A DNA stretch of 13,801 nt from a virus (lineage: Duplodnaviria > Heunggongvirae > Uroviricota > Caudoviricetes). Shown piece after piece: positions 1 through 13,801 of the stretch. The DNA is taken from IMG/VR virus record IMGVR_UViG_2534681759_000013. The stretch is one strand, 5' to 3'. Under the pieces are notes generated by a model that worked only from the letters and a program-made list of their open reading frames with translations, did no database searches and had not been told where the DNA came from. How positions within the stretch are numbered: position 1 is the stretch's first letter; each line of letters opens with the position of its first letter. The position numbers and the translations under genes were made by a program.

Positions 1-288
1 TTACCGCCGCAGCCGTTCCGGCTTCTTCCACTGGTAAGTATTTTTCGCGCTCTCCCTCCGTTGTTGAGAACGGCGACGGTATGCCAGCAACTCAAGGACT
101 CTTGTTCGTATGTTGCGCATATCCACGCCGTTAAGCTCAATACCGTCACGGAGCATCACCTCAGCCACCACACGCGCGTAATTTTCAGCGGTGACTGTAT
201 CCGGCTGCGCGGCCTGTTCGTCAGCCAACTGGCTGATTCCACCAGCACAGCGGATTAATCGCAGTATTTCAGATTCGGTCATTATCAT
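1..288 (-). CDS. hypothetical protein (95 aa), last gene of the left packaging module
   Basis: Complete ORF in the six-frame track (ATG at 288..286, TAA at 3..1). Its start overlaps the stop of the upstream Nu1-like gene (stop 287..285), indicating translational coupling. GC-rich backbone-type composition. No motif I can name. Confidence 0.45.
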   Translation of the reverse strand: MIMTESEILRLIRCAGGISQLADEQAAQPDTVTAENYARVVAEVMLRDGIELNGVDMRNIRTRVLELLAYRRRSQQRRESAKNTYQWKKPERLRR

Positions 289-770
289 GCCTGTTTTGCG
301 ACCTCATTCACTACGTCATTTTTTACCATCCGGCTGATAATCTGATTACGCAAATCGTCAATAATTGACTGCACTCTGTTTACTGCCATCGGTTTAAGCC
401 CGGCATCACGTGCCAGAATATTGGGGAGTTTTGCCAGTTCCTCGCTTACGATTTCCCCCCATATAGCCATCTCTTTTCGCACATCATCGGCGGGTATGAG
501 TTGCGCCGTTTCCTGTTCGAACCTGAGGCGCTCACGTTCGGACTGATACCAGGCCTTACGGTCATGTGGCTCCATTTCTTCCAGTGATGCCGGAACGGGA
601 AGATCAAGAAAACAGGTCAGAATGTCAGTCACCCGATAGAGTTTTAGCTTGTCATGCCCTCCGGCTGGCTGGATGTTTTTCAGCCTTGCCGCCGCAGTCT
701 GACGACATATTCCCGCTATCGCCGCCAGTTGATTAATGTTCAGCATCAGATTTTTCAGTTCTCGATCCAT
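285..770 (-). CDS. Nu1-like small terminase subunit / DNA-packaging protein (N-terminal HTH)
   Basis: The track ORF 285..857 starts at a TTG; the first ATG is residue 30 (MDRELKNL...), giving 285..770 by codon arithmetic. The N-terminus (LMLNINQLAAIAGICRQTAAARLKN...KLYRVTD) resembles the winged-HTH cosB-binding domain of lambda Nu1 as I remember it. The gene lies directly downstream, on the same strand, of a cos-like site, as in lambdoid phages. A satellite Rpp-like TerS-interacting protein cannot be excluded. Confidence 0.6.
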   Translation of the reverse strand: MDRELKNLMLNINQLAAIAGICRQTAAARLKNIQPAGGHDKLKLYRVTDILTCFLDLPVPASLEEMEPHDRKAWYQSERERLRFEQETAQLIPADDVRKEMAIWGEIVSEELAKLPNILARDAGLKPMAVNRVQSIIDDLRNQIISRMVKNDVVNEVAKQA

Positions 771-949
771 ACCCGCTCCAGAATGTTTTAAACATGCATC
801 TTGCGAACAACTTTCAGAAGAGGTCAAAAAATGCGCTATATGTTGAGCATAAAACAAGCAAAATTAACATGCTAAAAATAAAAATACTTAAAATTCAATA
901 CAATGGAAAGATGATGATGACGAATGAAAATGCAAAAACTAGCCTTTTT

Positions 950-969
950 CCGCGCCGCTCCCGCCCCGT
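950..969 (-). other. cosN-like cohesive-end site, left module (diverged copy)
   Basis: The minus strand reads CCACGGGGCGGGAGCGGCGCGGAAAAAGGC, resembling the lambda cosN region (..TTACGGGGCGGCGACCTCGCGGGTTTTCGC..) as recalled from memory. It sits between the capsid-gene terminator and the Nu1-like gene, and the same block recurs at 4583..4608. Confidence 0.4.
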
Positions 970-996
970 GGCAGGTCACTACACCGGGAGGACCCG

Positions 997-1020
997 CAAA
1001 AAAAGGCGGCTATCGCCGCC
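997..1020 (-). terminator. rho-independent terminator after the left capsid gene
   Basis: On the minus strand, GGCGGC-GATA-GCCGCC forms a perfect 6-bp GC stem followed by a T7 run, beginning 8 nt after the capsid stop codon (1030..1028). Confidence 0.55.
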
Positions 1021-1027
1021 CTTGTTG

Positions 1028-2647
1028 TCATGCTCCACTCGATTTCAGTAATCCGCGATAGTCGAGGGCCGCGACACCTGCATCTATGCGCACCTTCCAG
1101 GCGACGCCATCAACAGTAAATCCCTCCTGCTCCTCAAGATATGGCGTATCAATACCATCAAGATAAGCGACCTCTATCGTGTCCATCCCCTTCGCCGCTG
1201 CCACATACCACTCCTTGTTATTGGCTTTATCAAGACGCGGCTCGACGATAACCTCTGCCATATCTTTCACCACGTTAATGATGCCGGGGTTCTGATTGAT
1301 AGTGCCTCCACCATCAATCGGAAAGAGTGATGACGATGACAGAATGGCGCGATGTGCGGCAGACTCCAGCGCAGCAGGGACCAGAACAAAAGCGGGGGTA
1401 ATATTCAGGGAGTCGCCGTTGCCATCCTCCTGTAATCGCATCAGCTTACGGGCTTCGTTAAGCCCCTCCATGTCCATATCCTTCGCAATAAGATTTTTAT
1501 GATCGGCATGGAATAACGCTTTACCATCCGTAAATTTGCCGTTGCTGGTTAACAGAAGATAAACCAGATTACCTACTGTTCTGGCGGCCGCACGCCCCAT
1601 CGCCATGGGGATTGTAGTTAACTGGGTCAGGTCATCGTTGATAATGGCCTGACGGGTAACAGAAAAAATATTACCGTATGTGGCCAGCGCAATAGGTACA
1701 CCTTTATCGCTGGTGGTGATGTATTTATATTCCGCACCTTCCGGTACTTTATCCAGCTTTGAAAAACCATTCAGACCAACGCGCTTTGCTTCATGAAAGT
1801 TTGAAAGCGATCCGGTACACGTCCATTTCTGGAACGTTTCGCCGCTGTCCTGCCAGCCTTTCAGCACTGATTTTTCAGCACCACCAGCCAGAATATGAGA
1901 AAAATCGCTGCTGCTGTGTGTGAAAGCTGCATTAACGACCTGCGAGCGATTTAAAAAATTGCCAACACTGATACCACGATCAGTTAGTGATGCCTGGGCC
2001 ATTTCAAAAAGGCTCATCATCGCGTAAGGATTTCCCCGCTCTGGGCGTTCATACCCGAGACGAGAATAAAGCCCCTGACGAATTGCATCGCCTGTTATGT
2101 TCCCGTTACCGGCATAAATATGAGTCGGGATATTTTTATTGGATGGCGTGGACTCGCGCCCCAGCTCGTTCAACAACTTTTCACGGGCCATCTCCGGTGT
2201 ACATGATGCATCCTCCAGGCACGCCATTTTGATCCCGTCGTAACGACTGCCGAACAGGCTAAACACTTCACTTATTCCGTTGATGCGCTTCTGTTCATTA
2301 CCAGCAATATTTGCCGCTCCCTGTGGCGGTGTAATCATTCCTTTAATGGTTTCCGGCATATGTAAAAAATCTCCTGTGCGTTTCGATTCAATTCGCGCCA
2401 TTACTCTGACGGATGGCAACAATTCATCAGCAAAACCGTGCTTAAGGCATTCTTTCCCATCCATCCAGGTTTCATCCTCCAGCATGGCGGTAATTTCCTG
2501 TGCTGATTTGCCCGTTTTTCTGGCATAAGCAGGGATTAACACGGTTTCCACCTTATCCAGCAAATCAGCATAATCACGCATATCGCCAGCATTTCCGCCA
2601 GAGATCCCCCACGGTTTATGGATCATCATGCAATACATTGAAATCAT
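1028..2647 (-). CDS. major capsid protein (Mu gpT-like) paralog, 5'-truncated: retains only the distal part of the ClpP-like protease region
   Basis: 539-aa ORF, about 80% identical by eye to residues ~103-638 of the 638-aa protein at 4671..6587. It begins MISMYCMMIHKPWGISGG, so it keeps the ClpP-type His motif (MIHKP) but lacks the upstream ~100 codons that carry the Ser motif GLAASMA. Sequence upstream of 2647 is unrelated to the paralog. An internal ATG at 2638 has a better-spaced AGGA. Confidence 0.6.
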   Translation of the reverse strand: MISMYCMMIHKPWGISGGNAGDMRDYADLLDKVETVLIPAYARKTGKSAQEITAMLEDETWMDGKECLKHGFADELLPSVRVMARIESKRTGDFLHMPETIKGMITPPQGAANIAGNEQKRINGISEVFSLFGSRYDGIKMACLEDASCTPEMAREKLLNELGRESTPSNKNIPTHIYAGNGNITGDAIRQGLYSRLGYERPERGNPYAMMSLFEMAQASLTDRGISVGNFLNRSQVVNAAFTHSSSDFSHILAGGAEKSVLKGWQDSGETFQKWTCTGSLSNFHEAKRVGLNGFSKLDKVPEGAEYKYITTSDKGVPIALATYGNIFSVTRQAIINDDLTQLTTIPMAMGRAAARTVGNLVYLLLTSNGKFTDGKALFHADHKNLIAKDMDMEGLNEARKLMRLQEDGNGDSLNITPAFVLVPAALESAAHRAILSSSSLFPIDGGGTINQNPGIINVVKDMAEVIVEPRLDKANNKEWYVAAAKGMDTIEVAYLDGIDTPYLEEQEGFTVDGVAWKVRIDAGVAALDYRGLLKSSGA

Positions 2648-2696
2648 CCTACTGATAAATAAGATTAAAAATCACAATACAGATACGTTTGAGCTT

Positions 2697-2721
2697 CATT
2701 GCAATACGCATTGCAATACAC
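2697..2721. repeat. tandem ATTGCAAT palindromes (CATTGCAATACGCATTGCAATACAC); second copy at 12779..12801
   Basis: Two copies of the self-complementary octamer ATTGCAAT at 2698..2705 and 2710..2717, 12 bp apart. About 21 of 23 positions match the block immediately upstream of the integrase start codon. Confidence 0.5.
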
Positions 2722-2870
2722 GGTTGCTGGGTGATTTCAAAAGATGAATGCTGCGAAGGATGGAAATTTGGGAACTAGGTGGTGAATAGCACAACAAAAA
2801 ATCAGAATTCTACTAGCTTAAAATGATGCAAAAAGCATTCGTGGCATCGCAAGCGCTGTACAATTCGTTC

Positions 2871-2876
2871 TATAAT
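2871..2876 (+). promoter_or_regulatory. candidate -10 hexamer (TATAAT) for plus-strand transcription into cargo cassette 1
   Basis: Exact TATAAT in the 420-bp intergenic region, about 45 bp upstream of a strong-SD short ORF and about 195 bp upstream of the 3070 start. No convincing -35 identified. Confidence 0.25.
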
Positions 2877-3069
2877 GAAGAAAATTTCTAACAGACTTTA
2901 TCATTCAAAGGTGGAGGAGATGACAGCAATGCAACATGCATCACGCTCATACTTGAATTGTAAAGCTATCGTTAGAATCACAGCCTTTTTGTTCCGCTGA
3001 TCTAACGATAAAACTAGTGGTAAAAGGTATATTTTTTAATTTTTCAGACGCTGGCGCGGGGTAATTAAA

Positions 3070-3372
3070 ATGAAATTTGTAAATATACGGTCATCCGAGT
3101 TGCCTGAAATAGATACCTTTGTAAAAGAATGTATCAACCAAGGACAATGGACTCTTTTCAAGGCCGAGAAGGGTGCAGTTAATGATAATAAAGTTGCTTT
3201 TTTTCTAAAGGCTGGCAAAGATTTCTTTGCATTAAATAACAGAGGAAGTGTTATCTCTGTATTTCAATCATTAGATTATAATCTTGAAATGAATGAGGTA
3301 ATTCATTTTTCAGATATTCCTAAACCTGAATCGTTGAGCAATATTGCTAGCTTAGGATTTGCTAGAGTTTAA
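3070..3372 (+). CDS. hypothetical small protein (100 aa), first gene of AT-rich cargo cassette 1
   Basis: Track ORF with ATG at 3070 preceded by GGGG about 10 nt upstream. AT-rich codon usage (many K/N/I/F) distinct from the backbone. An 18-bp gap separates it from the next gene on the same strand. No recognisable motif. Confidence 0.55.
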   Translation: MKFVNIRSSELPEIDTFVKECINQGQWTLFKAEKGAVNDNKVAFFLKAGKDFFALNNRGSVISVFQSLDYNLEMNEVIHFSDIPKPESLSNIASLGFARV

Positions 3373-3390
3373 TATATAAGGATATGTACG

Positions 3391-4281
3391 ATGGGATTAA
3401 TATCTGGAAATACACATTGGGTATTATTTTTACCTTGTGAGCACCAACCAGAAGATCGCCATGTTCAAGATTTAGTTCATGGCGTCTTTTGCTTAGAATC
3501 CTCAGGTATACAGCCATCTAATATTAGCATATATATTGATGGCCAAAATAGAGCCAACTTTAATAAGTTAATTTCGATTGCAACCCAACATAATTATACT
3601 ATCAAGCCTACATCTGAATTTTTCACCGACTGCGATACAAATAGTTATGAAAATCTAGTTATGTTTGTGACCGGACACGGAAGTATGAATGGTTTGGACT
3701 CTGCGCCGATCATAACCCCATACCGTTTATTGGACAGGTTAAAAAACACTCCTGTTCTCAAGCAAGCAATCGTTTATCTTGGTCAATGTTTCGCTGGTGT
3801 TTTCAACTACTTACCTGCTGGGCAGCGTAAGAGAGGTGAAGATGCCGACCCCGATGTCATTCTTATCGGGGCTACGAGTCTTCATGAAAGTTTGAGTAAT
3901 CCAACAACGGAAAATATTAATGGTATAGATTTTCCTTGGGTTGCAAATCAATTTTTATATCATGTATTTAAGTGGATATCATCCCCGAATGATATCGATG
4001 GGGATGGAAAACATACAGTAATTGACTCTTATAAGTATGCTGGAATCTCATCAAACATGACCAATCGTAGAATGAAGATAGGTTCTTTTGTAGCTTCGGT
4101 AGACTTGCATGAGCAATGGAATACTGCAAAAAAAGATCATGAAGCTAACTTGGCTGATCCACAAAAACTACTCCGTTATAGAGCATTAGATCAGCAATAC
4201 TATGAAAAACTGAACATTAACTATATTCATCAAGAGTGCTGGATATTAAATTCTGTACCTGCACAATCTGTTGAATTCTAA
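3391..4281 (+). CDS. caspase-like (clan CD) cysteine peptidase-like protein with EF-hand-like Ca-binding loop
   Basis: 296 aa. A hydrophobic strand followed by His-Gly (LVMFVTGHGS, H96; codon 3676..3678) and a second hydrophobic strand followed by Cys (AIVYLGQCFAG, C133; codon 3787..3789) match the His/Cys dyad layout of caspase/metacaspase/legumain-type peptidases. DIDGDGKHTVID (residues 201-212, nt 3991..4026) fits the DxDxDGxhxxxD/E EF-hand loop pattern. AAGGA RBS 8-12 nt upstream of the ATG. Confidence 0.6.
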   Translation: MGLISGNTHWVLFLPCEHQPEDRHVQDLVHGVFCLESSGIQPSNISIYIDGQNRANFNKLISIATQHNYTIKPTSEFFTDCDTNSYENLVMFVTGHGSMNGLDSAPIITPYRLLDRLKNTPVLKQAIVYLGQCFAGVFNYLPAGQRKRGEDADPDVILIGATSLHESLSNPTTENINGIDFPWVANQFLYHVFKWISSPNDIDGDGKHTVIDSYKYAGISSNMTNRRMKIGSFVASVDLHEQWNTAKKDHEANLADPQKLLRYRALDQQYYEKLNINYIHQECWILNSVPAQSVEF

Positions 4282-4285
4282 TCCT

Positions 4286-4453
4286 TTACTTTTTTGAATA
4301 GATTGCTGCAAGTGCCGTTTTGAGGTCGTAATTTCGGCACTTGCAACTGCAACCAGAAATAGGGCGAACGTTTGACAAACGTTTAGCTATAGTCTGCCGA
4401 TGAAATCCAGTCACTTCCGCCAACTCACTTAAATTTAGAACTATCTTTTTCAT
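4286..4453 (-). CDS. short Nu1-like HTH DNA-binding protein (55 aa); apparently a truncated small-terminase gene
   Basis: Not in the ORF track (below its length cut-off); found by hand translation: MKKIVLNLSELAEVTGFHRQTIAKRLSNVRPISGCSCKCRNYDLKTALAAIYSKK. AAGGG SD 5-6 nt upstream of ATG 4453..4451, TAA at 4288..4286. It aligns across its whole length to the N-terminal HTH region of the 285..770 protein. It lies downstream of the cos-like site, and its stop is 4 bp from the convergent stop of the 3391..4281 gene. Confidence 0.5.
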   Translation of the reverse strand: MKKIVLNLSELAEVTGFHRQTIAKRLSNVRPISGCSCKCRNYDLKTALAAIYSKK

Positions 4454-4582
4454 CATAATTACCCTTCAGATGTCGAACAAATAACATACAATCCATCATC
4501 TTTTCCACTTTTATAAAGTTTTACCTAATAAAATTCAGTTAGTTAGCGAATGATGATGATGTCTATAAAATTCAAAAACTAG

Positions 4583-4608
4583 CCGTTTCCCGCGATGCCG
4601 CCGCCCCG
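4583..4608 (-). other. lambda-like cosN cohesive-end site of the satellite
   Basis: The minus strand reads CCTGCCACGGGGCGGCGGCATCGCGGGAAACGGCTAGTTTTTGAATTTTAT. Against lambda cos as recalled (CAGGTTACGGGGCGGCGACCTCGCGGGTTTTCGCTATTTATGAAAATTTT), the 11-mer ACGGGGCGGCG and the 7-mer TCGCGGG are identical and the flank is similar. It is followed about 140 bp later by the Nu1-like HTH gene on the same strand. Confidence 0.5.
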
Positions 4609-4634
4609 TGGCAGGCATCCCCGCCGGGAGTACC

Positions 4635-4662
4635 TTTTAAAAAAGGGCAGCATCTGCCGCCC
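4635..4662 (-). terminator. rho-independent terminator after the protease-capsid gene
   Basis: On the minus strand, GGGCGGC-AGAT-GCTGCCC forms a 7-bp stem (one G-U pair) followed by TTTTTT, 8 nt after the capsid stop (4673..4671). Homologous in position and form to 997..1020. Confidence 0.55.
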
Positions 4663-4670
4663 TCCTGTCG

Positions 4671-6587
4671 TCATGCCGCCCCGCTCGACTTCACCATGCC
4701 CCGATAATCCAGCGCCGCCACGCCAGCATCGATACGCACCTTCCATGCAATACCGTCCACAGTGAAGCCCTCCTGCTGTTCCAGATACGGCACGTCCATT
4801 CCATCCAGATATGCCACCTCGATAGTGTCGGTGCCTTGCGCTGCAGTGACGTACCACTCCTTGTTGTTGGCCTTGTCCAGTCGCGGCTCAACCACTACCT
4901 GCGCCATATCCTTCACGACGTTGATAATGCCTGGGTTCTGGTTCAGCATACCGTTCTGGTCTACCGGGAACAGCGAAGATGATGACAGCACAGCTCGATT
5001 GGCTGCGCCTTCCAGCGCGGCAGGTACAAGGATATAGGCTGGGATAACATTAATAGGATCGCCGTTCGCATCCTCCTGCAGACGCATAGCCTTACGGGCC
5101 TCATTGAGTCCGTCTGTATCCATCCCTTTAGCGATGAGGTTTTTATGGTCGGCGTGGAACAACGCTTTACCATCTGTGAATTTGCTGTTGGCGGTCAGTT
5201 GCAGGTAGACCAGATTGCCAACCGTTCGTGCGGCGGCACGCCCCATTGCCTGTGGAATGGTCGTGAGCTGGCTCAGGTCATCGTTGATAATGGCCTGGCG
5301 TGTAACAGAGAAGATGTTTCCATAGGTGGCCAGCGCGATCGGCACACCGCTGTCGCTGGTAGTGACATATTTGTATTCAGCACCTTCCGGGACTTTATCC
5401 AGTTCTGAAAAACCATTCAGACCGACACGTTTAGCCTCATGGAAATTCGACAGAGAACCGGTCTTTGTCCACTGCTGGAAAGTTTCCCCGCTGTTCTGCC
5501 AGCCAGTCAGCACCGACTTTTCAGCACCACCAGCCAGGATATGAGAGAAATCACTGGTGCTGTGCGTAAATGCCAGGTTCACGATCTGCGAGCGATTCCC
5601 GAAACCACTGACGCTGATACCACGATCCACCAGCGAAGCCTGCGCCATTTCAAACAGACTCATCATGGCGTAAGGGTTTCCCCTTTCGGCGCGTTCGTGA
5701 CCCAGACGGGCAAAAAGCCCCTGGCGGATAGCATCGCCGGTAATGTTGCCGTTACCTGCGTAAATGTGCGCGTTACTGGTTTTATCCGATGGGGTCGAGG
5801 TCTTACCCAGTGCCGTCAGCAGCATGTCTTTTGCTTTTTCAGGCGTGCAATCCACATCCTCCAGACACTGCATCTTGAGAGAATCATGCTTGCCGCCGAA
5901 CATGGCAAACAGATCCTTAATCTCGTTGATGCGGTTCTGTTCCGGTACAGCGCTACTGGTGGAACCTTTCGGGCTGGTGATCATCCCTTTAATTTCTTTT
6001 GGCATATGCTCAAAATCCTCAATTCGTTTTGACTCAATACAGGCCATTGCCCTGACGGCGGGTAACAATTCGTCAGCAAAACCCTGCGCTACACATTCGC
6101 GGCCATCCATCCATGTTTCATCCTCCAGCATTTCCGCCAGTGATTCGGCTGATTTACCCGTTTTGCGTGCATATGCCGGGATCAAGACACTTTCGACTTT
6201 ATCCAGAAGTTCGGCGTAGTCGCGCATGTCGTTGGCGTTCCCACCAGAGATTCCCCACGGTTTGTGAATCATCATGAGTGCGTTTTCGGGCATAACGATA
6301 CGGTCGCCAGCCATTGCAATAACTGACGCCATAGACGCGGCGAGACCGTCGATCTGCACTGTAATTTTTGCCGGGTGTTTATTCAGAAGGTTATAGATAG
6401 CGATGCCGTCAAAAACATCGCCACCGGGTGAATGAATGTGCAGGCTGATATGGGAGATATCGCCTAGGGCTTTCAGGTCTTCGGAGAACTGCTGCGCCGT
6501 AATACCCCAGCCGCCGATCTCTTCGTAGATGCTGATATTGGCGCTGGTGCCATCGCTGGCCGCTTTGATGGTGTACCAGCCTTTCAT
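4671..6587 (-). CDS. ClpP-like prohead protease fused to major capsid protein (Mu gpT-like)
   Basis: 638-aa ORF. The N-terminal ~180 aa carry ClpP/S49-type motifs (GLAASMASVIAMAGD with Ser85; MMIHKPWGISGG with His108). The C-terminal ~450 aa resemble Mu-like major head subunits as I recall them. The start ATG (6587..6585) overlaps the stop of the upstream small gene (ATGA). Confidence 0.85.
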   Translation of the reverse strand: MKGWYTIKAASDGTSANISIYEEIGGWGITAQQFSEDLKALGDISHISLHIHSPGGDVFDGIAIYNLLNKHPAKITVQIDGLAASMASVIAMAGDRIVMPENALMMIHKPWGISGGNANDMRDYAELLDKVESVLIPAYARKTGKSAESLAEMLEDETWMDGRECVAQGFADELLPAVRAMACIESKRIEDFEHMPKEIKGMITSPKGSTSSAVPEQNRINEIKDLFAMFGGKHDSLKMQCLEDVDCTPEKAKDMLLTALGKTSTPSDKTSNAHIYAGNGNITGDAIRQGLFARLGHERAERGNPYAMMSLFEMAQASLVDRGISVSGFGNRSQIVNLAFTHSTSDFSHILAGGAEKSVLTGWQNSGETFQQWTKTGSLSNFHEAKRVGLNGFSELDKVPEGAEYKYVTTSDSGVPIALATYGNIFSVTRQAIINDDLSQLTTIPQAMGRAAARTVGNLVYLQLTANSKFTDGKALFHADHKNLIAKGMDTDGLNEARKAMRLQEDANGDPINVIPAYILVPAALEGAANRAVLSSSSLFPVDQNGMLNQNPGIINVVKDMAQVVVEPRLDKANNKEWYVTAAQGTDTIEVAYLDGMDVPYLEQQEGFTVDGIAWKVRIDAGVAALDYRGMVKSSGAA

Positions 6588-6796
6588 TTTTCACCTTCCG
6601 TTACAGCGAAGCCATTTTCATCAAGCCATGCGTTGACTGCGTGCCGGACTACCTGTGCCACTCCGGGCAATGGCTGGACAGGAAGATTTTTCAGATGATC
6701 GTTGCGGTATTGCTTAAGGCGTACAACGGTTTGCGCGTCCAGATGTACGGAGCCGCCTTTAGTCTCGCCAGTGTTTAAATCGTTAATGTCACTCAT
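6584..6796 (-). CDS. hypothetical small protein (70 aa) translationally coupled to the protease-capsid gene
   Basis: The track ORF 6584..6844 starts at an alternative codon; the internal ATG at 6796 (MSDINDLNTGETKGG...) has AGAGGA 5 nt upstream. Its stop overlaps the capsid start. Confidence 0.5.
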   Translation of the reverse strand: MSDINDLNTGETKGGSVHLDAQTVVRLKQYRNDHLKNLPVQPLPGVAQVVRHAVNAWLDENGFAVTEGEK

Positions 6797-6941
6797 GATG
6801 TCCTCTACTGTATAAGTAAACAGGTTATGATGATTGATCACCAAAAGTGGTAAGTGAACAATTTTTTATCTGAAAAATAGATTTATGATGAAAAAAAATT
6901 TTTGTATGGTCTTAGATTGGAATAAACAGAAAGGTTAAAAA

Positions 6942-7655
6942 ATGGATCTCACTCGTAATGACGAACTCCTTTTGAATGATGCAGCTAGACGCTCATTTCG
7001 GGATATGGCAGACCAGGATTATCTCTCAGCTCGTCTGTGTTATAAGCACAAATTGAATTTTCAATTTTTATGGCTTTCGCAACAAGCCGTAGAGAAATAT
7101 ATTAAAGCGATTTTACTTTATAATAGAGTTCCAGTATTAAAATTAAATCACAATTTAAACAAAGGGCTGGCAAAGATTAAAGAAATCCCATATCTTGAAT
7201 TAGACCTAGATGTAAAAAGTGAGCGATTCATAGATTATCTCAATGAGCAGGGCCCAAATAGATACTTCCAAAACACTATGTATACCGAAGGCTTTGAAAT
7301 TATAACCTTGGATAGAACCATCTGGGAATTAAGAAGATACTGCAAGCCACTAAACTACTCAATTACTAACCCAAAAGGTGAAGTGATAGAAATGTTAGAA
7401 CATGAATTGAGTAGCATAAAAAATTCGAAGTCGAGGCCTTATCATACGTTCAAACTATTTGGAGGTTACTTAGAAAAAAGATTAAAAGATAATAAATTCA
7501 ATCAGGGCGACATACTTACATGGAAAAATTTATTTTTTGGAAGAAATAAAAAAAATGCAATTAGAATTGGAAGATCAATGCATGTAACTCATCCAACTCA
7601 TTATATGTACCCAAATGCAACGGAAATGCTCAGTCGTTTCTTTAAAATAAAATAA
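6942..7655 (+). CDS. hypothetical protein (237 aa), AT-rich cargo cassette 2; possible HEPN-like all-alpha N-terminus (weak)
   Basis: Track ORF with AAAGG RBS, strongly AT-rich, on the strand opposite the backbone and divergent from the capsid operon. The N-terminal segment (QQAVEKYIKAILLYNRVPVLKLNHNLNKG) has an R-x7-H arrangement loosely reminiscent of the HEPN Rx4-6H motif, but this is not convincing without a profile search. Confidence 0.55.
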   Translation: MDLTRNDELLLNDAARRSFRDMADQDYLSARLCYKHKLNFQFLWLSQQAVEKYIKAILLYNRVPVLKLNHNLNKGLAKIKEIPYLELDLDVKSERFIDYLNEQGPNRYFQNTMYTEGFEIITLDRTIWELRRYCKPLNYSITNPKGEVIEMLEHELSSIKNSKSRPYHTFKLFGGYLEKRLKDNKFNQGDILTWKNLFFGRNKKNAIRIGRSMHVTHPTHYMYPNATEMLSRFFKIK

Positions 7656-7755
7656 TTACATTCCAATTTTATTTACCGCTGTTAAATAAGTAAGGTATAT
7701 CTTTATTTATCGACATTGATAATCATGAAAGAGTATATCTTTTTTGCCGCACCTA

Positions 7756-7962
7756 GCGCATTTCTCACCGCACTTTCATCCCGCGCACTTAGGTGCGCAA
7801 TCCAACATGCACCGTACAGCCATTAAAACCAGTAATGGGGCGGGTTTGCAGGTGATTAATGCCAAACCGCGCACTTTCTTCGTATATACATGGAAAAAGT
7901 GCGGCAAGTGTATGTTTTATGAGCATTTCGCGCATCACGCGCATTTCTTGCCGCACTTTTCA
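7756..7962. repeat. iteron-like repeat cluster, putative satellite origin of replication
   Basis: GCGCATTTCTCACCGCACTTTCA (7756..7778) and GCGCATTTCTTGCCGCACTTTTCA (7939..7962) are near-identical direct repeats. Related copies include the palindrome GCGCACTTAGGTGCGC (7783..7798), CGCGCACTTTCTTCG (~7868..7882) and an inverted copy AAAAAGTGCGGCAAGTG (7895..7911). The cluster lies immediately 3' of the replication ATPase gene, where PICI-type origins usually sit. Confidence 0.4.
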
Positions 7963-7964
7963 GG

Positions 7965-9374
7965 TTAAATTATCGTGATATCTCCTGAATCATCGATAAA
8001 GATAATATTCTCCCTAACGAGTTTATCAAGCCAGCGTTTAAAACCTTTGCGGCCGTTCTCTCCAAACAGAGTGGTAATATCATCACGTATAACAGAGACA
8101 TTACACGGTTCACCTTTGGCTTTTCGGCTCCGGATTGACTGCCAGAGTGCAGCGTGGTTCCCAGTCAGGTGCTTGATATCAGCAAGTTCCGGATCAGGTT
8201 CTCGTGCCTCTCGTGGCAGGTCCTGCACCACCAGCGACGAAATAAGCTCACCATCACGATCTGTGAACAATTCGATCGGACGCAGATCGAATGCGGCCTG
8301 TTTCGGCTCCTCCGCATCTTTCATCTTCGTACAGGTCAGGATTATCGCCCCACCATCCCCCTCGCGCCGGACATTGAACTCTGCATCGAGCGCAGCCCTG
8401 AAAGCACTGGAACCACGTGCGCCTTTGGTATCGTCTTTTCCTGAATGATGCACCACCAGCAACGTGGCGCCAGTCTCACGCTTGATGACGTCGCAGCCTT
8501 CAATAAACGCCCCCATGTCACGAGCATCGTTTTCATCGTTACCACCAAAGCACCGCGCTAGAGTATCTATGACAATCAGGCGAACCGGCTGCCCCGTTTT
8601 GGACTTAACGTCACGCGCAGCTTTGATCATCTCCTGCATTTCCTCACGGCGAACCGGGAAAACCGGACGGTTTACCAGATACAGATTATTTAGTTTCACA
8701 CCATGTTTTTTCTCCCACGCCTTTATTCGCCGCGGAACGCCAATACCACCTTCACCTACTACGTACATCACAGCGCCGGCTGATACCGACTTCCCCGCCC
8801 ACTTCATCCCGGCTGCAACGTGACAAGCCCAGGACACCACCAGAAAACTTTTATACGAACCGCTCGGGCCGTAGATACTGCTCAGGCTGTTAGCGGGAAG
8901 ATAACTTTTTAACGTGTAATCCTGCTCCTGATCGTACCCATCAGAGCCCACGCTTAAAGGAAGGCTGTGCCGCAGTGACTCCTCTCGCACAGAGACTTCA
9001 ACCTGTTCACGCAGACGAGAAAGATATTCCCTCCAGTCCTCAGGCTCATGGTCGGGGATTCCTTTATACAATTTGGCATCCTGCACGCCAGCCAGCGCCA
9101 GCTTTTCAGCAATGTTATTAATCTGGATAGGCTTTATATTCCCTGCCAGGTAAATCCGCACGGCACGACGGCCATCATCCACAATGCGCAGGTTATCCAG
9201 CTCTGCCAGTTGTTTTGGCCCAAGGTAAACAGGAGGAGTGGTATCTTCGGCAATCTGTTTACCAAGCCCCTCTTCCCAACCCTTCGCATGGGCGTATGCT
9301 TCTGACCCGGCAAAAATAACTGCCTCCGTGAATTTTTCTTTTGGCAGGTGTTTCAGATTCGGTGCGTTTTTCAT
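7965..9374 (-). CDS. replication initiator / helicase-type RecA-fold P-loop ATPase (RepA/DnaB-like) with an unknown N-terminal domain
   Basis: 469-aa ORF. Walker A (IYGPSGSYKSF), Walker B-like (RLIVIDTLARCFGG) and a downstream LLVVHHSGKDDTKGARGSSAF segment are typical of AAA_25/RepA-like replicative ATPases found in PICI and P4-like primase-helicase genes. Its start overlaps the stop of the upstream gene. Confidence 0.85.
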   Translation of the reverse strand: MKNAPNLKHLPKEKFTEAVIFAGSEAYAHAKGWEEGLGKQIAEDTTPPVYLGPKQLAELDNLRIVDDGRRAVRIYLAGNIKPIQINNIAEKLALAGVQDAKLYKGIPDHEPEDWREYLSRLREQVEVSVREESLRHSLPLSVGSDGYDQEQDYTLKSYLPANSLSSIYGPSGSYKSFLVVSWACHVAAGMKWAGKSVSAGAVMYVVGEGGIGVPRRIKAWEKKHGVKLNNLYLVNRPVFPVRREEMQEMIKAARDVKSKTGQPVRLIVIDTLARCFGGNDENDARDMGAFIEGCDVIKRETGATLLVVHHSGKDDTKGARGSSAFRAALDAEFNVRREGDGGAIILTCTKMKDAEEPKQAAFDLRPIELFTDRDGELISSLVVQDLPREAREPDPELADIKHLTGNHAALWQSIRSRKAKGEPCNVSVIRDDITTLFGENGRKGFKRWLDKLVRENIIFIDDSGDITII

Positions 9375-9694
9375 TTCAGCCCCTTATCCCATCCGTCAGA
9401 TCCAACACTCAGCGGCAGAGAAGAGCGCAGAGCAGCGATTTTTTTACGCACGTTTTCTTTTACGGTCTCCTGCCACTCCCTGCTTTCCTCAGGGAGATAA
9501 ATAAATTCTTTTCGGAACCGGTACTCAGAAAAAATACACTCATGTGAATACCCATCCCGGACATACGTAATACGGCTATCCGTTATGCATGTGACAGTAA
9601 TTTTTTCTCCGCGAGAATCTTTCCAGCGACTGTTAAGCTCGATTTTTGGTTGAGCGATGCCCTCAGGCTGAACCTGATTGAATTTTTTAATCAT
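9371..9694 (-). CDS. hypothetical protein (107 aa); C-terminus shares the SLPLSVGSDG linker motif with the replication ATPase
   Basis: Track ORF with AAGGA SD 8 nt upstream of ATG 9694. The stop is coupled to the ATPase start. The C-terminal ~30 aa are similar to residues ~110-145 of the 7965..9374 protein. Confidence 0.55.
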   Translation of the reverse strand: MIKKFNQVQPEGIAQPKIELNSRWKDSRGEKITVTCITDSRITYVRDGYSHECIFSEYRFRKEFIYLPEESREWQETVKENVRKKIAALRSSLPLSVGSDGWDKGLK

Positions 9695-9698
9695 GAAT

Positions 9699-9878
9699 TT
9701 ATTCCTTGTCGGTAGCCGTTAAACCGTATGCTTCAGCAGCCTGACGAACTGCCTGGATAAAACCTTCCGGTGTGGCCACGATTTCGTCCGGACGAAGGCG
9801 GCGCTCTGTAACCTGACCGTTTTTAACCGTCACCAGTACGCGGATCTCGTAATCAGCAGGTAAGGCGGAGTTATCCAT
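9699..9878 (-). CDS. hypothetical small protein (59 aa)
   Basis: Internal ATG ([15 protein letters not shown]...) of track ORF 9699..10004. It overlaps the stop of the upstream gene (caTGGAtaa arrangement) and ends 4 nt before the next start, so it is tightly packed in the operon. Confidence 0.4.
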
Positions 9879-10158
9879 GGCGCACCTCCATTGGCACAGC
9901 TTCATTGCTGTAAGGATCGCTACCCAAGATGCTCCATAGGGTGCGATGTTCAGGATCCATAAACGACACTGAGAGCGGGCTTTCTGTTCGGATTTTGGCG
10001 GCAAAGGTCAAGTCCCAGCCGCAGAACTTTGCACGGGCAGTATCTTCAGTGTCTGCAATGGTGCGCAGAACTATCGGGAGACAAGAGTGACCTCGCGGCG
10101 TGCCAAGGAATAGCCATGTAAATTTTGGGCGAGTTTGGGTATGCTGTTGATCAGCCAT
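9871..10158 (-). CDS. hypothetical protein (95 aa), first gene of the replication operon
   Basis: Internal ATG at 10158 ([13 protein letters not shown]...) of track ORF 9871..10215, with GAGGT SD about 7 nt upstream. Divergent from the RHH gene across an operator-like intergenic region. Confidence 0.45.
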
Positions 10159-10251
10159 AACTGTTACCTCAACTAACGGTTTGTGGTTAGACGTCCCGTG
10201 AGTGGTTCCAAGCACTTCCGGGACGTTGCTTTTTTCACGTCAAGCGTGATA

Positions 10252-10289
10252 ACGTACGTAATAGCAACATCCTATGAGGTTACGTACGT
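10252..10289. promoter_or_regulatory. paired ACGTACGT palindromes, candidate operator in the divergent promoter region
   Basis: The palindromic octamer ACGTACGT occurs at 10252..10259 and 10282..10289 (30 bp centre to centre), between the divergently oriented 10158 start (minus) and 10292 start (plus). The second copy sits just upstream of the RHH gene ATG. Confidence 0.45.
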
Positions 10290-10291
10290 AC

Positions 10292-10483
10292 ATGTCAACA
10301 ATAAAACGAGATAAAACACCCAAAGGAGAGGGCTTGTCTCCGACATTCCAAATCCGAATAAGTCCTGAATTGCGCCAGCAGATGAATGAAGCTGCTGAGC
10401 GTGAGGGAGTAAGTCTTGGTAATTGGCTTAAAGGTCTGGCTAGAAATGAACTTATTAAGCAAGGAATTGAACCTAAAGGTTAG
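10292..10483 (+). CDS. ribbon-helix-helix (Arc/CopG-like) DNA-binding protein, candidate repressor
   Basis: Second ATG of track ORF 10274..10483 (the first ATG lies inside the operator palindrome). 63 aa with a beta-strand then two helices (TFQIRISPEL / RQQMNEAAEREG / VSLGNWLKGLARNEL), typical of RHH regulators. GAGGT about 11 nt upstream. Confidence 0.6.
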   Translation: MSTIKRDKTPKGEGLSPTFQIRISPELRQQMNEAAEREGVSLGNWLKGLARNELIKQGIEPKG

Positions 10484-10536
10484 TTTTCACAAGCACTCTT
10501 TGATTTTTTCAGTAAAAATTAAATTAAGGAAATTCT

Positions 10537-11247
10537 ATGGATGATTTATATACACCATCTGAATATTTTATGTTCGTAGAGAAATTTGATCATTACTTCC
10601 CACGAAAAAGCCCTTTTAACTCATTATTATTCGAGTTCAATTATAGATTAGAAGATATAGTTGTTTTTCATCGCTTTGTTATCAACACCTATTCAAAAAA
10701 TAAAAAAGCAATTGATGTACAATATAATAAATTTAATTTTCTTGATGATAAACAAAAAAATTCCCTTTCTGATGACGAGTATGAAGCGTATCAACTCAGG
10801 TTTGCAAGGCATATGGAATACATTAACCATCAAACTGATTTGAATGAAAAAGCGTCTTACATTGCTAACGATAGTGTCGTTATAAACTTATGGGCCATGA
10901 ATGAACAATATATGACTAGAGGATTGGCCAACCTAATATCTCAAAAAGAAAATAAAAATTTAAATGAAGTTAAAACGCCTTACAAATGGGATACAATCAA
11001 AAGTAAATTCCTGTCATATGGAATCAACTTTGAGACATTGCCATCTTATGATGACATTAATGAATGTAGAGTACTGAATAATAAAATAAAACATCTGAAC
11101 ATAGTAGATTCTGGTTTAGAAGTTTTCCCTCCCTTCAAAGGTAAGCTTAACGAATCACTTACTGGCATGGCCTTTCCTCTTCAAAAATATATCATAGGCT
11201 CTCATCACTTTATAGGAATGCTATTAGAAGAGTGCTCATTAAAATAA
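10537..11247 (+). CDS. hypothetical protein (236 aa), AT-rich cargo cassette 3, downstream of the RHH gene
   Basis: Track ORF with AAGGAA RBS 6-12 nt upstream, strongly AT-rich, 53 bp after the RHH stop on the same strand. No recognisable catalytic motif. Confidence 0.6.
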   Translation: MDDLYTPSEYFMFVEKFDHYFPRKSPFNSLLFEFNYRLEDIVVFHRFVINTYSKNKKAIDVQYNKFNFLDDKQKNSLSDDEYEAYQLRFARHMEYINHQTDLNEKASYIANDSVVINLWAMNEQYMTRGLANLISQKENKNLNEVKTPYKWDTIKSKFLSYGINFETLPSYDDINECRVLNNKIKHLNIVDSGLEVFPPFKGKLNESLTGMAFPLQKYIIGSHHFIGMLLEECSLK

Positions 11248-11251
11248 ACGC

Positions 11252-11288
11252 ATGGCAACGTATAATTTATCGCTTAATACGTTGCCAT
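11252..11288. terminator. hairpin between convergent genes (candidate bidirectional terminator)
   Basis: Perfect 11-bp inverted repeat ATGGCAACGTA / TACGTTGCCAT (11252..11262 and 11278..11288) with a 15-nt loop. It is 5 nt after the 10537..11247 stop and 6 nt after the alpA stop, with U-rich tracts on both transcribed strands. Confidence 0.5.
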
Positions 11289-11293
11289 ATCTC

Positions 11294-11530
11294 TCATTTA
11301 TTTTTATCGAACCAATCTCCTTTAATCCAAGCTTGCATCTCTGAGAGCCGGTAAGCAACTGCTGACGGCCCAATTTTGATTCGCTTAGGAAATTTTCCTT
11401 CCTGTTCCATGCGCCAGCGCGTTGAGTTAGACAACGTAGTCATAGCCCGGCATTCAGGTTCGCGAATCATTCTGTCAAGGTCAGGCATGTACTGGAGATC
11501 TTCTTTTTTCACAACGGATAACATAGCCAT
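11294..11530 (-). CDS. alpA: AlpA-family phage regulatory protein (excisionase-like HTH)
   Basis: The track ORF starts at GTG 11539; the first ATG is at 11530 (MAMLSVVKKE...) with AAGGAG 8 nt upstream. The segment AMTTLSNSTRWRMEQEGKFPKRIKIGPSAVAYRLSEMQAWI matches the AlpA/Xis-like HTH pattern. It lies immediately downstream of the integrase gene. Confidence 0.7.
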   Translation of the reverse strand: MAMLSVVKKEDLQYMPDLDRMIREPECRAMTTLSNSTRWRMEQEGKFPKRIKIGPSAVAYRLSEMQAWIKGDWFDKNK

Positions 11531-11531
11531 A

Positions 11532-12767
11532 TCAGGCACTCCTTTTCTTAATTACTTTTACTGTATTTTCTTCACCCACCAGCCCATCAAGGTAGTCAAC
11601 CCATCGGTCCAGTGCTTCTTGCTTTTGAGGGATATACTTGCTGCGGTTATAGACTCCGGCCACGCCCTTTATGGTATGCCCCAGCAGCTGCTCTACGACC
11701 ATAAAATCAACGCCCATATCGTTAAGGCTTGTCGAGAACGTTCGTCTCAAATCATGTAATGACCAGCGTTTTTCATGTTTCAGAGAGATAAAGTTTGTGC
11801 ATCCCATCGTACTGACGGTTGAATCAGATTTCAGTTCGCCAAATATGTAGCCTCTCCTTTTAGTCTCTTCGTGCAGGTTTACGATCCACTGGCGCATTTT
11901 TTGAGGAACGGGGCGAATAATTTCTTCGCCGTTTTTACTGTGCTCTTTAGGTACTGTCCAAATCCACTTATCGAAATCCCACTCATCCCATGTAGATAAA
12001 CGCGCCTCACTCAGCCTGCAGCCAAACACGAGACACAAAATCGCCATCCTTTTTTTGTAATTCATTACACGGGTTTTGCCTTTACCATGAAAGTACACTC
12101 CCCACAGATCGGCGACGTAGCTTTCCTCAAGTAGCCGCTCTCTCTTGTTCTGATACTTACCGATATCACCAGGGCTCAAATCATCAAGCACATTGCACCG
12201 CACATACTGGCGCACCCGGCAGTATTTGAAGATCTGCTTTAACTCAATCAGCATTGCAGCAGACTGAACCGGCGCGATTTTCTTTATGCGGTCGAAGCAC
12301 TTGATCCAGTCTGACAGACCGCATTTCTCGACAGGAAACCCGCCGATGTAGGGAAAAATGTATCTCTCATAACGGCGATAGAGCCGTAAAGTCTCTTTGC
12401 GCTTTTCCCTGGCATAGTTATCAAACCAGTAATCGATAGCGTTCTTCACAGTTACTGGAGTGAACAGGTTCTCTTTGGTGAGTTTGTTCTCTATTCGTGG
12501 GTCGAGTCCCTGAGATAGCCATGCCCGGCACTCGTCCCTTTTCTCTCTGGCCTGTTTAAGGGTCATATCTGGATACTTGCCTAACGTCATCCAGACGGGG
12601 GCGCTTTGTCGGCCGGAATGTCTGAAGAAATACACAAAGCTCACAGTGCCACTAACGCTCACTCTGACAGACAGTCCACGACCATCTGCCACCATCTTTT
12701 GACGCGGCTGGGGTTTACCATGTAAGGCCTTTAACGCCTTGTCGCTTAACTTGTTCTCGCCCGCCAT
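11532..12767 (-). CDS. int: tyrosine recombinase / phage integrase, P4-type
   Basis: 411-aa ORF with an N-terminal arm-binding-type region (GRGLSVRVSVSGTVSFVYFFR) and C-terminal catalytic signatures (HDLRRTFSTSL ... LLGHT ... YNRSKY). GAGG SD 5-8 nt upstream of the ATG. Confidence 0.9.
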   Translation of the reverse strand: MAGENKLSDKALKALHGKPQPRQKMVADGRGLSVRVSVSGTVSFVYFFRHSGRQSAPVWMTLGKYPDMTLKQAREKRDECRAWLSQGLDPRIENKLTKENLFTPVTVKNAIDYWFDNYAREKRKETLRLYRRYERYIFPYIGGFPVEKCGLSDWIKCFDRIKKIAPVQSAAMLIELKQIFKYCRVRQYVRCNVLDDLSPGDIGKYQNKRERLLEESYVADLWGVYFHGKGKTRVMNYKKRMAILCLVFGCRLSEARLSTWDEWDFDKWIWTVPKEHSKNGEEIIRPVPQKMRQWIVNLHEETKRRGYIFGELKSDSTVSTMGCTNFISLKHEKRWSLHDLRRTFSTSLNDMGVDFMVVEQLLGHTIKGVAGVYNRSKYIPQKQEALDRWVDYLDGLVGEENTVKVIKKRSA

Positions 12768-12778
12768 AAAACCTCATT

Positions 12779-12801
12779 CTGCAATACACATTGCAATACA
12801 C
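12779..12801. repeat. second copy of the ATTGCAAT tandem-palindrome block (CTGCAATACACATTGCAATACAC), 12-34 bp upstream of the integrase ATG
   Basis: Near-identical to 2699..2721. It contains the palindromic octamer ATTGCAAT at 12790..12797 and a degenerate copy 12 bp upstream. Confidence 0.5.
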
Positions 12802-12944
12802 ACTTAACTGCAACGCCGAAAAACAGTAGAAAAGCAATGCAAACAACACCTCTTCTTTCGTAAGCGCATCATTTAAACCGTCTTTCGCCTCCCTTTCCTG
12901 TTTCCGATACTAATGTCCATTTTCGCAGTAAAAGGACATTTAAG

Positions 12945-13595
12945 ATGAATGCACGAAAGGCGGTACTGGCAGATAACCCGGAATTGATCCTGCGTGTGCT
13001 ACAGCTGAGATTTGACGAGTCACTGTCGTACCCGCGCATTTCTGCGCAGACCGGTGTCAGCAAAACCGCCATTTTTTCTCTGGTGAGGCGATTTCACCAG
13101 ATATTCGCTGACTGGCCTCTTTCCGGTGAATATTCCTGCATGCAACTGGCCCGGGCTCTTTTCCCTGGGCGATATCCTTCAGCCCCGACAGTGACTCAGC
13201 CTGTGAAAACAGAGAAAATCCGCCGGAACCGATTTTCACCGGAGTTTAAATGGAGGCTTGTTCAGCAAACTCTTTTACCCGGTGCCTGTGTCGCACAAAT
13301 AGCTCGCGAGAACGGAATCAACGATAACCTGCTCTTTAACTGGCGGCATCTCTGGCGTAACGGCGGCCTGCAGCCGCCCGGCGAACATGAAACATCGCTA
13401 CTTCCCGTGACGTTAACGCCGGAGCCGGATAATAAAATCCCGGCACCAGTGCAGATACCTGAACAGATAAATACACTGCCAGACAGTCTGTGCTGCGAGC
13501 TGGTTCTGCCGGCCGGAACTCTCAGGCTGAAAGGTGAACTGACACCGGCGTTATTACAGACACTTATCCGCGAAATGAAAGGGAGCAGCCACTGA
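12945..13595 (+). CDS. tnpA: IS66-family accessory protein TnpA (orf1), with an N-terminal extension or alternative start
   Basis: The central segment RRNRFSPEFKWRLVQQTLLPGACVAQIARENGINDNLLFNWRHLWRNG matches the conserved IS66 Orf1 HTH core as I remember it. The 216-aa ORF is longer than I would expect for this family, so the true start may be internal. Confidence 0.7.
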   Translation: MNARKAVLADNPELILRVLQLRFDESLSYPRISAQTGVSKTAIFSLVRRFHQIFADWPLSGEYSCMQLARALFPGRYPSAPTVTQPVKTEKIRRNRFSPEFKWRLVQQTLLPGACVAQIARENGINDNLLFNWRHLWRNGGLQPPGEHETSLLPVTLTPEPDNKIPAPVQIPEQINTLPDSLCCELVLPAGTLRLKGELTPALLQTLIREMKGSSH

Positions 13596-13801
13596 TGATA
13601 TCTCTCCCTGCCGGTTCGCGTATCTGGCTGGTTGCCGGTATCACCGATATGCGAAATGGCTTTAACGGCCTGGCCTCAAAAGTTCAGAACGTCCTGAAGG
13701 ATGACCCGTTCTCCGGGCATCTGTTCATCTTCCGCGGACGCCGGGGTGACCAGATAAAAGTGCTGTGGGCTGACAGTGACGGACTGTGCCTCTTCACCAA
13801 A
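13595..13801 (+). CDS. tnpB: IS66-family TnpB (orf2), 3'-partial
   Basis: Hand translation from ATG 13595 gives MISLPAGSRIWLVAGITDMRNGFNGLASKVQNVLKDDPFSGHLFIFRGRRGDQIKVLWADSDGLCLFTK, the conserved IS66 Orf2 N-terminus as I recall it. It is absent from the track because it runs off the window without a stop. Confidence 0.8.
   Translation, partial: MISLPAGSRIWLVAGITDMRNGFNGLASKVQNVLKDDPFSGHLFIFRGRRGDQIKVLWADSDGLCLFTK

Follow-up and report, generated by a model that had tools for sequence, protein, structure and literature searches.

The window analysed here, the whole 13,801-nt stretch of viral DNA, raises the question of how an intact protease-capsid fusion gene came to lie 2 kb from a shortened homolog of itself (Table 1). 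An earlier note had described a 638-aa ClpP/capsid fusion and a 539-aa copy, about 80% identical over the shared region, that starts inside the protease domain and has no Ser motif. The ORF coordinates, motifs and domains bear out this description. The right (638-aa) protein carries both GLAASMA and MIHKP, consists of CLP_protease (37-175) and Phage_capsid_4 (329-634) domains in Pfam, and scores 900.9 bits against NCBIfam model NF045540, the "ClpP-like prohead protease/major capsid protein fusion" (cut-off 475). The left ORF (1028..2647, minus strand, 539 aa) is without the N-terminal ~104 residues of this fusion: it begins with MISMYC-MMIHKP, its residue 7 falls on position 109 of the CLP_protease profile, and it retains the capsid domain and profile positions 109-179 alone, positions 1-108 and the Ser motif being missing. 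BLASTP aligned left residues 7-539 with right residues 105-637 with 424/533 identities (80%) and zero gaps. The DNA identity is 73.4% (906..2630 vs 4548..6276), extending ~122 bp beyond the stop codons of both copies. Self-BLAST of the window detected no duplicated segment besides this single capsid-gene pair.

Table 1. Features of the window, by position and strand.
Position	Strand	Feature	Remarks
1..288	-	Last outer-PICI gene, 95 aa, phrog_1561, unknown function	Hypothetical protein in CP024240
285..857 (PGAP start: 285..770)	-	DUF1441/terminase-small-subunit-like gene, outer PICI	Pfam PF07278 E=4e-36, phrog_141 terS E=3e-57
906..1027	-	Conserved block 3' of outer capsid gene	Homologous to 4548..4670
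1028..2629	-	3' part (codons ~105-637) of outer PICI ClpP-protease/major-capsid fusion gene	PGAP pseudogene "missing N-terminus"
2618..2629	-	att identity block ATGATGATCCAT (coding strand; codons M-M-I-H)	Late-zone-side junction of inner element
2630..2647	-	Six codons (MISMYC) from end of inserted element, creating apparent new ATG	Homology to other copy stops at 2630
2700..2721	-	Doubled arm-type motif, reverse complement of tgTGTATTGCantgTGTATTGCa	Short arm of inner attP
3070..3372	+	AT-rich cargo gene 1, inner element, 100 aa, unknown function	phrog_30138
3391..4281	+	AT-rich cargo gene 2, inner element, 296 aa, uncharacterised family	
4548..4670	-	Conserved block 3' of inner capsid gene	Terminator-like hairpin 4658..4646
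4671..6587	-	Intact ClpP-like prohead protease/major capsid fusion gene, inner HE-PICI	638 aa
6584..6844	-	Small gene upstream of inner fusion gene	phrog_4934
6942..7655	+	AT-rich HEPN-domain cargo gene	
7965..9374	-	RepA-family helicase (AAA_25), replication zone of inner element	
11294..11539	-	AlpA-like HTH regulator/excisionase candidate	
11532..12767	-	Tyrosine integrase of inner element	Arm-DNA-bind_3 + Phage_integrase
12780..12801	-	Second doubled arm-type motif	Long arm of inner attP
12860..13801	+	IS66-family element: terminal repeat GTAAGCG..., tnpA 12945..13595, start of tnpB	

The homology between the two copies breaks off sharply at 2630/6276, exactly at the junction of an inserted element. 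The 12-bp block ATGATGATCCAT is present at both junctions (window 2618..2629 and, in a sister genome, L001 21935..21946), the insertion lies in the outer protease-capsid gene at codon ~105-108, where the His motif (MMIH) is encoded, and the reading frames meet at this core (...PENAMMMIH | MMIHKPWG...). Removal of the insert and one core copy in silico restores a 637-aa ORF. A search for an intact homolog of the left module yielded the uninterrupted gene of strain EC13 (L003), to which the restored ORF is identical at 611/637 residues, the similarity holding for both halves (97/104 and 514/533). The apparent new start MISMYC is made of chance codons from the end of the inserted element and is not an evolved N-terminus. 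Measured from the centre of the 12-bp block, the nearer edges of the two doubled arm-type motifs are 76 bp away on the late-zone side, which makes this the short arm, and 139 bp away on the int side, the long arm (sum 215).

We concluded that an inner satellite of the helper-embedded PICI (HE-PICI) type very probably integrated site-specifically into the protease-capsid gene of an outer PICI and thereby split it. The gene would thus have been split by the nesting of two elements, and therefore the 80%-identical "paralog pair" would be two orthologous genes, one from each element. Mechanistically, the P4-type tyrosine integrase of the inner element would have recombined its attP with ATGATGATCCAT, the coding sequence for MMIH within the catalytic-His motif of ClpP-like prohead proteases. 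Normally such integration hits the head protease(-capsid) gene of a lambdoid prophage; in this case the homologous gene of a second satellite, a PICI at tRNA-Ile (tRNA-Ile2 in the published nomenclature), would have served instead. The outcome is a nested, co-oriented composite with a 5' 110-codon piece past the integrase and a 3' 533-codon piece at 1028..2629. At the att position the inner element's own capsid gene reads ATGATGATTCAC, vs ATGATGATCCAT in the target, and this mismatch would prevent self-integration.

The arrangement recurs in other genomes. At least nine complete E. coli genomes, assembled independently in different projects and from different hosts, show the junction seen here with 99.9-100% identity, and in sister genomes the 5' 110 codons of the outer gene are intact ~10.3 kb away, past the inner integrase. 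In CP024240, a 330-bp pseudogene annotated as "head maturation protease, missing C-terminus" lies directly beyond this integrase; it is followed by a second satellite backbone with its own integrase next to nfeF, and a tRNA-Ile gene stands at the opposite end of the composite. A megablast search of 5,426 complete E. coli genomes detected the inner integrase in only 6; the context was the same each time, and no independent insertion site was seen among them. Rahnella victoriana and Kluyvera have integrases with 93% identity, and these too lie at this codon of a protease gene in a prophage (junction ...MMMIH|YPSHYLMGTH). The target protease gene there comes after DUF1441-terS, gpA terminase and a lambda-family portal gene, and ~11 kb further downstream there is a second copy of the core. 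Other strains (MS1679) carry partial late-zone duplications at the tRNA-Ile locus of the outer PICI, and these are recombinational in appearance.

The inner satellite is ~10.3 kb long, covering window ~2621..12859 and continuing to ~12937 in sister genomes. It follows the four-zone PICI order (an integration zone with AlpA, a Bro/dynamic zone, a replication zone and a late zone), with int, HTH/AlpA-like gene, Icd-like/DUF4222, RepA helicase and protease-capsid gene, and all its backbone genes, like the split protease-capsid gene, are on the minus strand, i.e., co-oriented. Searches of the AT-rich, opposite-strand cargo genes with PADLOC, Pfam and NCBIfam gave no defence-system or family match except HEPN in 6942..7655. 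Cargo gene 2 belongs to a widespread family, a few members of which bear the names caspase or peptidase C13. The conserved block CCTGCCACGGGGCGG... is present 3' of both capsid genes. A palindromic stem at 1005..1020 followed by a T-run lies 3' of the outer copy, and a terminator-like hairpin is present 3' of each gene; the terS-like gene that the earlier note placed after the left copy corresponds to the DUF1441/phrog_141 gene. For the cos-like site named in the earlier note, a search with the lambda-cos sequence returned a single match (4595..4606, 2 mismatches), which is chance level. We assign to the outer element the 95-aa gene (1..288), the terS-like gene and the left capsid fragment, whereas the full-length capsid gene is part of the inner element.

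The earlier note had attributed the pair to related satellites in tandem, the left capsid gene having then lost its 5' end by deletion, or to modular recombination of packaging modules. Two diverged homologous modules 2 kb apart would fit such a history, as would the partial late-zone duplications of MS1679 and the complex tandem on record at tRNA-Ile2 (PMC10111431). We nevertheless consider it very improbable: the supposedly lost 5' part, all 110 codons of it, is found beyond the inner element in the sister genomes, a 12-bp identity block marks each junction, the ORF is regained on in silico excision, and the same codon is used by the integrase in prophages of other genera. Moreover, the order 3'-half/insert/5'-half is unreachable from a tandem array by simple deletion. 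What stands of the earlier interpretation is the presence of two satellite packaging modules that are homologous but diverged long ago; they are nested rather than side by side, and nothing was deleted. A Campbell-type homologous crossover between two capsid genes was also considered and rejected, as it predicts two chimeric full-length genes and not a split gene with a 12-bp repeat.

The earlier note also allowed for an assembly chimera at ~2648. Such a chimera would come from collapse or mis-join of two similar capsid genes. Repeats of 73% identity 3.6 kb apart might in principle mislead short-read assemblers, but repeat collapse needs higher identity than this, and the identical junction in at least nine independent complete genomes, plus the 24 genomes in PMC10111431, leaves this explanation with next to no credibility. 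We give equally little credence to duplication in situ within one element followed by divergence and 5' decay, which would make the copies true paralogs. The shared orientation and the similar 120-bp block downstream are compatible with it; however, the copies belong to backbones that differ in integrase, replication genes and att sites, and the left copy shares 96% identity with intact genes of PICIs at tRNA-Ile or other sites elsewhere but only 80% with its neighbour.

In this strain the composite was further altered by an IS66-family element inserted at 12859/12860; the insertion point falls between the integrase gene and the integrase-side att core, ~75 bp short of the latter. Because of this insertion the 5' fragment and the integrase-side att core lie outside the window; their presence in this strain is deduced from the sister genomes, which match the window at 99.9-100% identity as far as 12859. 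Those sister genomes that were read directly, or aligned without a break past 12859, have no IS66 there, and the IS66/integrase junction was found in none of 5,426 complete E. coli genomes. By its position IS66 would cut off the crossover core from the integrase-proximal arm sites, and it has probably locked the composite in this strain; precise excision on induction and mobilisation by a helper may be prevented here.

[quoted passage not shown] It is conceivable, although we think it unlikely, that insertion into a satellite is no accident, such that the inner element parasitises the outer PICI with the split gene as a developmental switch, and that IS66 froze the pair with the inner capsid alone expressed. 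If true, the switch would withhold the outer capsid until the inner element excises, making a satellite of a satellite with "two helpers", an idea put forward in PMC10111431. More generally, an apparent "truncated paralog" beside an intact gene in a mobile-element region may be half of a gene split by nested integration, and annotators should therefore check past the neighbouring integrase before inferring deletion. The locus is also an example of satellites aiming at conserved active-site codons of head-maturation proteases.

The nested arrangement in these E. coli genomes was already published in 2023. Tommasini, Mageeney and Williams described helper-embedded PICIs at site C:CLP_protease:110, including 24 E. 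coli HE-PICIs inside a tRNA-Ile2 PICI as a 20.6-kb composite ("HE-PICI in a PICI", Fig. 5A; PMC10111431). They list Eco7709.10.C_CLP_protease_110 (CP024240.1/2403977-2393661; identity block atgatgatccat), the coordinates of which correspond to window 2621..12937; the supplement also lists CP023349, with coordinates matching as for CP024240, and the ATGATGATCCAT block itself appears in supplementary file 3 (PMC10111431). The inner element shares with this group the integrase group, the 12-bp attL/attR identity block at CLP_protease position ~110, the doubled arm motif, the outer tRNA-Ile2 PICI and the ~20.6-kb composite, and in sister genomes the gene halves flank the co-oriented element. The authors place the identical element in the single HE-PICI/fis/hpt integrase clade, and the inner integrase would be expected to fall there too. 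In the published attP the doubled motif tgTGTATTGCantgTGTATTGCa occurs twice in the same orientation, ~81 bp from the centre on one side and ~132 bp on the other (PMC10111431). Two doubled motifs also flank the attP centre here; the distances deviate by ~6 bp each, an offset that depends on the definition of the core centre, and the sums agree (215 vs 213). Unlike the published cases, the copy in the window has the IS66-family insertion between integrase gene and att core, and this strain-specific event is the only addition to known biology. The founding HE-PICI, Eco567.11capE, resides in the lambda-like capsid gene E of prophage 50icd, and induction experiments were done on this other element (PMC10111431). 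Like 11capE, the inner satellite has its own capsid homolog that deviates at the att block, and sits in, and is co-oriented with, the matching late gene; 11capE differs in its site (E:Phage_cap_E:80), its 10-bp block and its target in a prophage, the target here being in a satellite. The inner element also resembles Gram-negative PICIs such as EcCICFT073 in its int-alpA-replication-late zone order, its ~10-kb size and its captured late-zone capsid gene, whereas classical PICIs occupy chromosomal sites apart from the helper.

The window carries two protease-capsid genes (Table). Profile searches place both the CLP_protease and the Phage_capsid_4 domain in the 638-aa protein, which scores 901 bits against NCBIfam NF045540 ("ClpP-like prohead protease/major capsid protein fusion"); the 539-aa protein keeps the capsid domain, its CLP_protease profile is reduced to positions 109-179, and the His motif MMIHKP is present and the Ser motif GLAASMA absent. 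In BLASTP, residues 105-637 of the right copy align gap-free with residues 7-539 of the left at 80% identity, as the earlier note had judged in describing a long ORF with a protease-truncated copy. At the DNA level 4548..6276 and 906..2630 match at 73.4%, so the similarity reaches ~122 bp beyond each of the stop codons, with a sharp limit at 2630/6276. PGAP labels the left copy a pseudogene, "missing N-terminus". Its first six codons, MISMYC (2630..2647), derive from the end of an inserted element and supply the ATG fortuitously.

Coordinates of features in the window
Feature	Position	Strand	Remark
Full-length fusion ORF	4671..6587	-	638 aa
Short ORF	1028..2647	-	539 aa
Non-coding ~120-bp block, directly 3' of the capsid genes	906..1027 and 4548..4670		common to both satellites
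Doubled motif TGCAATACRCATTGCAATACAC	2700..2721 and 12780..12801		inner element
IS66-family element	12860..13801		terminal repeat GTAAGCGCATCATTTAAAC (GTAAGCG...); tnpA 12945..13595, then start of tnpB
Cargo gene, small	3070..3372	+	inner satellite's late zone
Cargo gene, large	3391..4281	+	inner satellite's late zone
HEPN-domain gene	6942..7655	+	
236-aa gene	10537..11247	+	

The left copy, taken for a paralog, is the 3' half of a gene from an outer satellite. An inner satellite has inserted into that gene, and the full-length copy is the inner satellite's own. Sister genome CP024240 (locus position minus 9000 gives window position) has, from left to right between the tRNA-Ile gene and nfeF, first an unknown gene, DUF1441 and the 3' fragment of the capsid gene; next a pair of opposite-strand cargo genes, the complete fusion gene, HEPN, RepA helicase, DUF4222, Icd-like, HTH gene and integrase; then a 330-bp pseudogene ("head maturation protease, missing C-terminus"); and finally another satellite backbone (primase, DUF4222, Icd-like, HTH), which terminates in an integrase different from the first. 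The 5' piece closes ...PENAMMMIH, the left copy opens MMIHKPWG, and ATGATGATCCAT stands at both junctions of the inner element. In silico removal of the intervening DNA and one ATGATGATCCAT copy restored a 637-aa ORF. Strain EC13 has a similar satellite whose gene is uninterrupted, and the restored ORF matches it at 611/637 residues, the two halves agreeing equally well (97/104 and 514/533); identity to the adjacent full-length copy is only ~80%. The junction blocks, the restored ORF and these identities are the reason for reading the gene as split.

The earlier note explained the pair by tandem integration of related satellites followed by deletion, or by modular recombination. Two related satellites are indeed present; the restored ORF and junction blocks identify the cause as nested site-specific integration instead. 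The inner element has no DUF1441 gene, and since its relatives in Rahnella and Kluyvera also lack one in the late zone, this absence is typical and not a deletion. A chimeric assembly at the junction is ruled out, as several complete E. coli genomes contain the entire arrangement from 1 to 12859 (99.9-100% identity), and at least nine contain its left part.

The inner element's integrase is a P4-type tyrosine enzyme (Arm-DNA-bind_3 and Phage_integrase) 158 bp from the junction. In a scan of one genome per species, Rahnella victoriana and Kluyvera proved to have integrases 93% identical to this one. Their elements occupy the same codon of a protease gene (...MMMIH|YPSHYLMGTH...) preceded by DUF1441-terS, gpA terminase and lambda-family portal, the genes of a prophage head module; the core occurs a second time, as ATGATGATCCAC, ~11 kb downstream. 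It follows that the integrase normally targets the conserved His-motif codons in the head proteases of prophages, and that the homolog carried by a satellite is an alternative target. At the att position the inner element's own gene has ATGATGATTCAC, with two mismatches to the block, which would disfavour self-integration by analogy with the published 11capE.

The 5' protease fragment escaped the earlier note because an IS66 insertion displaces it beyond the window. Sister-genome sequence is left at 12859/12860, between the integrase-proximal doubled motif (integrase-gene side) and the crossover core, which lies ~75 bp past this point in the sister genomes, where the insertion is absent. The insertion probably disables excision and immobilises the inner element. 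Sister strain 90-9280 has an IS66 copy with 100% identity on its plasmid CP024242.

The left copy is followed by a DUF1441/terS-like gene and by a hairpin with T-run, agreeing with the terS-like gene and terminator described in the earlier note; a cos search gave no substantiation of the cos-like site. Hairpin and T-run structures and the conserved ~120-bp block occur 3' of both copies, not just the left. This block, in which a hairpin and T-run are followed by CCTGCCACGGGGCGG and GCTAGTTTTTG, is a candidate for a site of packaging (cos) or regulation. Expression of the left capsid is possible but unsupported: a search for a promoter-like site on the coding strand near 2647 found none, and only a weak AGG(A) precedes the ATG. 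Transcription would need read-through from the inner element across the opposite-strand cargo genes and a terminator-like hairpin.

The two late-zone cargo genes are AT-rich (34-38% GC). The larger encodes a 296-aa protein with a GHG...QCFAG His/Cys pattern. Its proteobacterial family (~296 aa) is widespread and uncharacterised, although a few proteins in it are named caspase or peptidase C13 (PF01650). PADLOC gave no match for the two genes, which are possibly an unrecognised defence or abortive-infection pair. Two further opposite-strand genes (28-37% GC) interrupt the satellite backbone and look like additional accessory/defence hotspots, one encoding the HEPN-domain protein and the other, adjoining a HicB-like antitoxin gene, a 236-aa product without family match.

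Locus L002 (CP023815, strain IMT16316; 10514..23013) has a satellite that matches the outer PICI at 97.5% identity over window 1..2629. It is integrated within gpA, the gene for the terminase large subunit, in a lambdoid prophage with its own ClpP-protease/capsid fusion and DUF1441 terS, and so represents a further helper-embedded configuration, in which another late-gene site is used. At locus L004 (CP097719, strain MS1679; 14001..19006), the same tRNA-Ile/nfeF site is occupied by a satellite with a single integrase, in which capsid-DUF1441 and a cargo gene are followed by an internal Clp-protease fragment, a second DUF1441 and the terminal gene. Part of the late zone is duplicated here in a way that looks like the work of recombination and not of an integrase, and that may be related to the "complex tandem" shown in Fig. 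5F of PMC10111431.

"Helper-embedded PICIs" (HE-PICIs) of one integrase clade were described by Tommasini, Mageeney & Williams (NAR Genom Bioinform 2023; PMC10111431), with 14 target sites in prophage late genes, among them C:CLP_protease:110. In E. coli, 24 HE-PICIs at this site lie inside a PICI at tRNA-Ile2, not a prophage, forming a 20.6-kb composite (Fig. 5A) that was considered possibly accidental, with "two helpers" (PMC10111431). The published distances of the doubled motif, tgTGTATTGCantgTGTATTGCa, from the attP centre are 81+/-2 and 132+/-2 bp (PMC10111431); here, measured to the nearer edge of each motif, they are 76 and 139 bp, summing to 215 versus 213. The supplement lists CP023349 and, as Eco7709.10.C_CLP_protease_110, CP024240.1/2403977-2393661 with identity block atgatgatccat (PMC10111431), coordinates that convert to window 2621..12937, the mapping made here. 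The configuration, its mechanism and the sister genomes are thus already published (PMC10111431).
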